Part shown: piece after piece, positions 9,597-10,440 of the stretch | How positions within the stretch are numbered: the stretch's first letter is position 1 | Layout of the letters: every line of letters begins with the position of its first letter | Assembly: GCF_032191835.1 (NCBI RefSeq) | Contig: NC_083237.1 | Coordinates: forward strand, 39,494,001-39,558,000 | Direction: 5' to 3' | DNA length: 64,000 nucleotides | Source of the DNA: Heteronotia binoei | Lineage: Eukaryota | Position numbers and translations under genes: made by a program | The notes under the pieces: model-generated | The model's input: the letters and a program-made list of their open reading frames with translations, nothing else | What the model was told of the DNA's origin: nothing | The model's database searches: none

Positions 9597-10117
9597 TCAT
9601 ACACACGCACACACAGAGTGAGATCTGTTTCGCAAACAAGGCATTTCTAAAACTCTGTCACACACAGAGATCTTTTTGGCAAACAAGGCATTTCTAAAAA
9701 CCAACCATTAAAATAACATAGAGCTGATTAATTAATATTCTTACCAGGCTGCTTAAACACAGTGGCTGCTTGGGGGGGCTGCTGGGGTGCCTGCTCTTCC
9801 TCGTCTGAAATAACCTCTGCCAAAAAAAACCCCAGATCAAATTAATTCAGAAAACTTCACATCATTACAACTTGTTTGTTTCATATTTTTTAAATTTACC
9901 TATGTCATTAATAGCGTATTGATTCAATTCAATCATGCTGCTAATAGCTGCTGTTTCTAACTCTTGTGATTCCATACACAGATCATCATCGAGGTAATCT
10001 GAAACCAGAATAATGTACACATTATTAAATGCCTATCTGCTGTTTTTTCTCTAACCCCCACAACACAACCCCCACCAAAATTTTCTCACCTTGGTAATCA
10101 TTGAGATGGGAAGCCAT
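9597..10117 (-). CDS. Predicted spliced small acidic protein (~82 aa): exons 10117-10090, 9998-9900, 9816-9745, 9646-9597
   Basis: Strong Kozak agcATGG. GT-AG introns of 91, 83 and 98 nt, all phase 1. Internal exons of 99 and 72 nt are open: MASHLNDYQDYLDDDLCMESQELETAAISSMIELNQYAINDIEVISDEEEQAPQQPPQAATVFKQP(EMPCLRNRSHSVCACV). The last exon is the least certain. Confidence 0.55.
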
Positions 10118-10440
10118 GCTGCTGTGTCCTGTTGTACCTTTAGACTGTAGGTATAAAGATGGGTCTTCACCCTCCTTAATATAGCTGATCAGAAAGAGGT
10201 CAGAAAATATACTGCTGATTGATCATGTAATGAGATCCTGTTTCCCCCCCTGTGACAAAGTTCTTTCTGTTTATTTATCTTATCAGGTCTAAGCAGAGAT
10301 TCTAATTTTAAAAGATTGTGTATAAGATTTATGTTTGATAGTTTTCTAATACAGCGTGTTAGTGGCTGTCACTTAAGCAATTATACATAGAATACATTAT
10401 GAAACAACATGTATTTTTTCCGTAACCTTCCGCTGGTGCA

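Follow-up and report, generated by a model that had tools for sequence, protein, structure and literature searches.

A SUMO-interaction-like motif assembled across a splice junction in the predicted N-terminal leader of a gecko Maverick polymerase

Vertebrate Mavericks/Polintons are described by Barreat and Katzourakis, in the accessible text of PMC8097293, as carrying eight intronless core ORFs, with 'no introns' in intact elements. Krupovic et al. (10.1101/2024.03.18.585575) describe a polinton TP-vOTU-pPolB polyprotein, from which the vOTU is proposed to cleave off the terminal protein (TP); the accessible sections of that preprint mention neither splicing, introns nor SUMO. Among adintoviruses, the Beta adintovirus exemplar, the Terrapene box turtle adintovirus, has a PolB (DAC80301.1) that clusters with a turtle protein 69% identical to the polymerase core studied here, and the accessible portion of its description likewise makes no mention of splicing or SUMO (PMC8502044). 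A spliced replication protein is found within the same virus lineage in the adenovirus E2B pTP/polymerase unit, where the annotation of HAdV-37 gives pTP a first exon of 9 nt lying some 3 kb upstream (accessible text of PMC2397415; the available part of PMC7851563 gives no detail on this exon). SUMO-interaction motifs (SIMs) follow the pattern V/I-x-V/I-V/I and then S and acidic residues (PMC7915335, accessible text), and some that viral replication proteins require have been reported, for example in geminivirus Rep (PMC12724345). The literature searched, mostly outside subscription papers, Repbase, the original Polinton papers and supplements, contained neither a spliced Maverick polymerase nor a SIM in one.

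We analyzed a 64,000-nt stretch of the Heteronotia binoei genome (GCF_032191835.1, NC_083237.1, positions 39,494,001 to 39,558,000), hereafter referred to as the window, in which an original prediction had placed a hidden spliced gene inside a Maverick. The host element spans 11.8 kb (615..12423, no strand assigned) and is bounded by long inverted repeats (arms 615-1316 and 11700-12423, 93-99%). Its minus-strand frame 7960-3731 (1,409 codons) matches PF03175 (Pfam scan, E = 1.6e-41), so that both the terminal inverted repeats and the protein-primed family B polymerase (pPolB) of Mavericks/Polintons are present. The integrase/capsid/protease module is missing from the window copy, while corresponding frames occur in 4/4 examined relatives from the same genome. 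Thus the integrase, protease and capsid side of the definition is represented by the relatives: one that was scanned encodes an rve integrase (E = 1.5e-14), a Peptidase_C5 (adenain-like) match under the cut-off (E = 0.002) and capsid-sized frames that gave no Pfam match. Compared with these four relatives, two internal deletions at about 2259 and 2330 took out the module. Neither a clear end motif nor a 6-bp target-site duplication was seen on inspection of the repeat ends of the window copy. Together, the inverted repeats, the PF03175 polymerase and the module lost relative to other copies identify an internally deleted Maverick/Polinton. The frame is open but carries substitutions at normally invariant polymerase positions, which suggests that this copy is probably decaying. 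The long inverted repeats, the pPolB-ATPase module and the rve integrase and adenain-like frame of related copies resemble vertebrate Mavericks as described in the accessible text of PMC8097293, whereas those are intronless and the element here has three phase-1 introns in the coding 5' end of pPolB. The intronless description is therefore departed from, but intronless core genes are a descriptive rather than a defining property, so the element is a Maverick/Polinton.

Several other features were observed in the window. At the element's other end, plus-strand accessory frames (1393-2101), kept in four relatives, contain repeated tyrosine motifs x-Y-E-E/D-M, which we take to resemble SH2-binding sites. 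A separate LTR-retrotransposon-like element (25459-31210) has direct repeats that are identical over at least 300 nt and lie 5,452 nt apart, as well as long frames and an internal 12-nt tandem array (30252-30419). A repeat family of four to five blocks whose minus-strand frames encode 200-350 aa (37258-54782) is probably a tandem host gene cluster.

On the minus strand upstream of the polymerase, we found three small coding exons separated by GT-AG introns, all in phase 1. Coding exon 1 (10090..10117) holds the ATG, nine codons and one further nucleotide and is followed by intron 1 (91 nt; 9999..10089); the acidic exon 2 (99 nt; 9900..9998) is followed by intron 2 (83 nt; 9817..9899), and exon 3 (72 nt; 9745..9816) by intron 3 (1,830 nt; 7915..9744). 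The last of these introns closes with the AG at 7915, a phase-1 acceptor that is in frame with the polymerase and leads into the main exon (3731..7914). The predicted start codon at 10117 is present in a good context (AGC ATG G), and the 99- and 72-nt exons with their first two introns were located as foreseen; of the three short introns predicted, introns 1 and 2 are indeed short, whereas the third runs from the donor at 9744 to the acceptor at 7915 in RNA. An upstream acceptor proposed at 10145 exists as an AG but is not conserved (7/27 distinct copies in the alignment) and is unused by the contig, and it was set aside. Six ATGs lie upstream of 10117, within a region covered unspliced by a contig. 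The sole TATA-like pattern match in 10101-10800 is a candidate promoter at 10624..10632 (minus strand), and around it a block of about 170 nt is duplicated upstream (10443-10614 and 11334-11494).

The RNA evidence comes from a single run (X1) of one study, examined as assembled contigs (share of words 0.09) that stem from related copies, with this locus as source not provable. Placed on the window, the contigs gave joints 9745-7914 and 9900-9816, both with GT-AG ends. On copy L037, chosen as reference because its indels matched the main contig, that contig joined across all three introns at equal depth (42.9), including the exon 1 to exon 2 junction predicted at 10090/9998 as well as the 9900/9816 junction. 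Its pieces (559 + 99 + 72 + 29 nt) total 759 nt, the full length of the contig with zero spare letters, and therefore no further exon lies between exons 1-2-3 and the polymerase. The shorter side of its polymerase joint was 29 nt; a second contig (depth 29.1, shorter side 72 nt), with four other letters, also joined exon 3 to the polymerase on L037. Unspliced contigs were present too, one of them identical across intron 1.

We further compared the exons among genomic copies. In a search of the same genome, 40 of 115 candidates were scored, which yielded 44 matches; 30 loci including the window were fetched, and collapsing four identical rows left 27 distinct rows. Exon 1 measured 28 nt in every one of these copies; exon 2 was 99 nt in 23 (93 in three, 85 in one) and exon 3 was 72 nt in 23 (78 in one, 71 in three). 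Length variation was found in the introns, with 14 different values for intron 1 and 16 for intron 2. The ATG was kept in 26/27 copies, the three donors in 25, 27 and 26, and the acceptors of introns 1 and 2 in 27 and 23 (the latter in the aligned column). Variants common to at least two rows fell on codon positions 1/2/3 in the ratio 18/18/41, and synonymous changes made up 32 of these 77, where a share of 0.26 was expected (P = 0.0017, only approximate because the copies are related; exon 2 alone, P = 0.012). Singleton variants (9 synonymous, 51 non-synonymous) matched the expectation for decay after insertion, and the other two frames contained many stops and had no synonymous excess. The exon pattern is more than chance and reflects coding constraint. 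Among 20 copies fetched as longer stretches, 15 hold the exons together with the polymerase start, of which 14 have the 7915 acceptor intact, and intron 3 ranges from 762 to 2,941 nt in the 12 copies with both ends located. Splice sites and frame, on which the original prediction had staked itself, are thus conserved, and the hidden spliced Maverick coding sequence that it proposed stands on both RNA joints and coding constraint. We conclude with high confidence that the coding sequence of the Maverick pPolB gene begins with these three exons, joined in frame to the polymerase.

The resulting product would be a pPolB of about 1,460 aa translated from the ATG at 10117, with 66 acidic leader codons and 1,394 codons from the main exon. 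The main exon begins with a basic, apparently disordered stretch (its residues 1-54, pLDDT under 50), followed in the prediction by a long helix, a TP-like domain, an OTU-like domain, a Cys-rich region and the PF03175 polymerase. Two basic clusters within this start (7799..7861, minus strand), conserved in copies, appear NLS-like. The ten best Foldseek rows for the OTU-like domain were all OTU (E = 0.006-0.03; best 0.006-0.01 with probability 1.00), none reaching E <= 0.001; C335 is nearly invariant and H422 invariant across 48 rows. The leader itself appears to be disordered and would lie ahead of the NLS-like stretch and of the TP-like and OTU-like domains. A predicted alpha/beta domain and then an OTU-like domain before the polymerase recall the polinton TP-vOTU-pPolB polyprotein, and relative to that polyprotein the spliced leader here precedes the D1/TP domain. 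Translation from another in-frame ATG, at 7885 and retained by 15/16 rows, could also give a leaderless polymerase. The exons matched nothing in the Pfam scan (exons 2 and 3).

The original prediction had also proposed a SIM-like motif formed by splicing, and the junction peptide NDI|EVISDEEE (the bar marks the splice junction) is present across exons 2 and 3. The motif I|E-V-I-S-D-E-E-E (9794..9903, minus strand), whose SUMO binding is a prediction, spans intron 2 and fits the V/I-x-V/I-V/I pattern with a Ser/acidic tail; it resembles host and viral nuclear-protein SIMs, but exists only after splicing. In 100,000 shuffles the strict SIM pattern, which was fitted to the observed motif after the fact, arose in 0.0007 and the loose core in 0.13. 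The core I-E-V-I occurs in 24/27 distinct copies.

Leaders were next compared across species by means of RefSeq automatic gene models, with junctions deduced from differences between isoforms. The nearest named polymerases are from a gecko, and in the search for homologues in other Mavericks three Paroedura picta polymerases (XP_077198782.1, XP_077198779.1 and XP_077205236.1) proved to have a homologous leader of the same layout with the motif kept. In exon-by-exon comparison, D-I|x-[VI]-I-S was the longest run common to the leaders of this family and of Paroedura in exons 2-3. The Paroedura models appear to point to the same three junctions: an EphB1 chimera (XP_077205233.1) enters after the 9-codon first exon, another EphB1 chimera (XP_077205235.1) enters just inside the SIM, and between isoforms X1 and X2 a single residue is gained or lost at the polymerase acceptor, which is a tandem NAGNAG in 15/16 rows of the Heteronotia genome. 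Continuous frames of this genome match the Paroedura N-terminus from residue 83-86 on in 47/48 matches. Host-Maverick chimeric models such as the EphB1 fusion are accounted for by the phase-1 acceptors. Two EphB1 models of the Paroedura picta RefSeq set (P0002, P0006) splice into Maverick leader exons and run through the whole polymerase, and further pPolB matches bear the host names mcf2lb, Nanog, histone H2B and a SCAN/KRAB fusion. In Hemicordylus capensis the leader reads D-N-I and then V-D-L-T, the latter opening a 19-residue block missing from isoform X3; we take its IVDLT to be a PIAS-type SIM, and this pattern, added after Hemicordylus was seen, was found in 2/9. The Terrapene adintovirus PolB is annotated as 1,337 aa, and turtle RefSeq models extend up to 323 residues ahead of that start; these extensions held no SIM by the patterns used. 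The 50%-identity representatives included many polymerases, and the 14 unnamed N-termini inspected among them had no leader like this one. Spliced polymerase leaders are already present, unnamed, in RefSeq automatic models.

Whether the motif binds SUMO is the point on which the strongest alternative turns, in which the leader, though spliced to the polymerase, serves only as an acidic spacer, its SIM-like residues reflecting splice-site sequence or another partner. Most vertebrate homologues do not have the motif, since only 3 of 35 leaders (two Paroedura, one Xenopus) match the first SIM pattern; the idea that vertebrate pPolB leaders carry a SIM in general was accordingly rejected, and these counts indicate a lineage-restricted motif. 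In three distinct copies, moreover, the S after the core is replaced by L, and, since the motif lies across an exon junction, splice signals could account for part of the conservation of its flanks. Set against this, the hydrophobic core and acidic tail persist where the rest of exons 2-3 has diverged, and Hemicordylus has a different SIM type at a comparable place. We regard the spacer as a serious competitor that is nonetheless the less probable reading, and, judging from sequence, we lean slightly towards a leader motif that really binds SUMO. A search of the host's own genome for a whole, unspliced SUMO frame found none evident, the family search giving polyubiquitin-like repeats and partial matches.

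A second alternative, which we consider rather unlikely while still deserving attention, is that one gene yields two products, the full polymerase and a leader-only SIM protein made through retention or truncation of intron 3. The short form would then be a SUMO decoy or regulator, and making it would switch off polymerase production; taken jointly with the two-product reading, this role is given the same modest weight. Read-through of donor 3 meets a stop after 4 codons in 23/27 copies, but the early stop is lost in the other four. The head of intron 3 (9670-9744, minus strand) is unusually conserved, its first 50 nt scoring 0.97 among copies vs 0.91-0.96 for the exons, and may possibly be a splice-control or retention element; AATAAA/ATTAAA also occur inside the intron. 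Contigs cover intron 3, but this cover may be pre-mRNA or DNA, and RNA ends are not visible from contigs. RefSeq models a leader-only isoform in Hemicordylus (X5, 144 aa) and in Chrysemys (303 aa), which speaks for such a form, although these short isoforms are automatic models.

By comparison, the separate small accessory gene of the original prediction, ending in an exon at 9694 or 9647, is very improbable, since the RNA and the copies place the exons in frame onto pPolB through the acceptor at 7915. The near AG is kept in 26/27 copies, and intron 3 exceeds the exons in conservation over its first 50 nt; however, the intron to this AG would measure 47-56 nt (51 nt in the window copy), below the human short-intron threshold of 65 nt (accessible text of PMC4463651), and beyond it the frame enters a microsatellite, with a stop 11-51 codons on in the various copies. 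The duplicated block said to create two acceptors does exist with its AGs, as a 47-nt tandem duplication (9610..9700, minus strand) that lies with microsatellites within intron 3 and is not supported as an exon, but two blocks occur in 1/27 copies, so that the second acceptor is private to the window copy. As starts of a last exon, the near acceptors at 9694, 9672 and 9647 share no common frame or length, and none of the contig joints from this one run, on the window or on L037, leads to them or to 10145; the proposed last exon thus falls away. Finally, that the exons were captured from a host gene, or are non-coding DNA in which splice-like signals arose by chance, is highly improbable, given that they accompany the polymerase start, show coding constraint and have counterparts in another gecko's Mavericks, and that exons 2 and 3 lack any Pfam match.

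The best explanation, in which we have good confidence, is therefore a leader with a junction-built SIM-like motif that is spliced in frame onto pPolB and likely binds host SUMO. In this mechanism, splicing of the three exons onto the protein-primed polymerase would extend it at the N-terminus by an acidic leader of 66 residues; the junction-built motif in this leader is predicted to bind host SUMO and would thereby help to place the polymerase/terminal-protein precursor at SUMO-rich nuclear sites. The likeliest role would be that of a replication precursor docked on SUMOylated nuclear proteins. Should cleavage by the vOTU release the terminal protein, as proposed for polintons, the leader would remain with the half that carries this protein and is attached to the genome ends. 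That the motif acts at PML/SUMO bodies is a tentative suggestion that we think unlikely at present, and antagonism of PML bodies or host nuclear defences is a conceivable but speculative role. More speculative still is the idea that splicing acts as a switchboard for the lizard Maverick replication protein, with a junction-built SIM that could be included, skipped or set free in a leader-only form, and that would steer the genome-bound terminal protein to SUMO/PML bodies or shield it from them.

In adenoviruses, TP and polymerase are separate proteins. The N-terminus of their replication protein likewise comes from a distant small exon, which makes the E2B pTP/polymerase a functional parallel; three codons are supplied there (PMC2397415, accessible text), in contrast to three exons, 66 codons and a linear motif here. 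A spliced coding leader implies a reliance on nuclear splicing, as in adenoviruses, and the presence in Maverick polymerases of linear motifs that annotation has missed. When a polymerase is called from its open frame, the sequence starts at the wrong residue, as with the unnamed protein P0003, which starts at the end of intron 3 here. If true, the switchboard reading would make this the first vertebrate Maverick polymerase in the literature searched to be linked to a host-interaction motif. The SIM also offers an inexpensive experimental way into the standing question of how these elements deal with the vertebrate nucleus.
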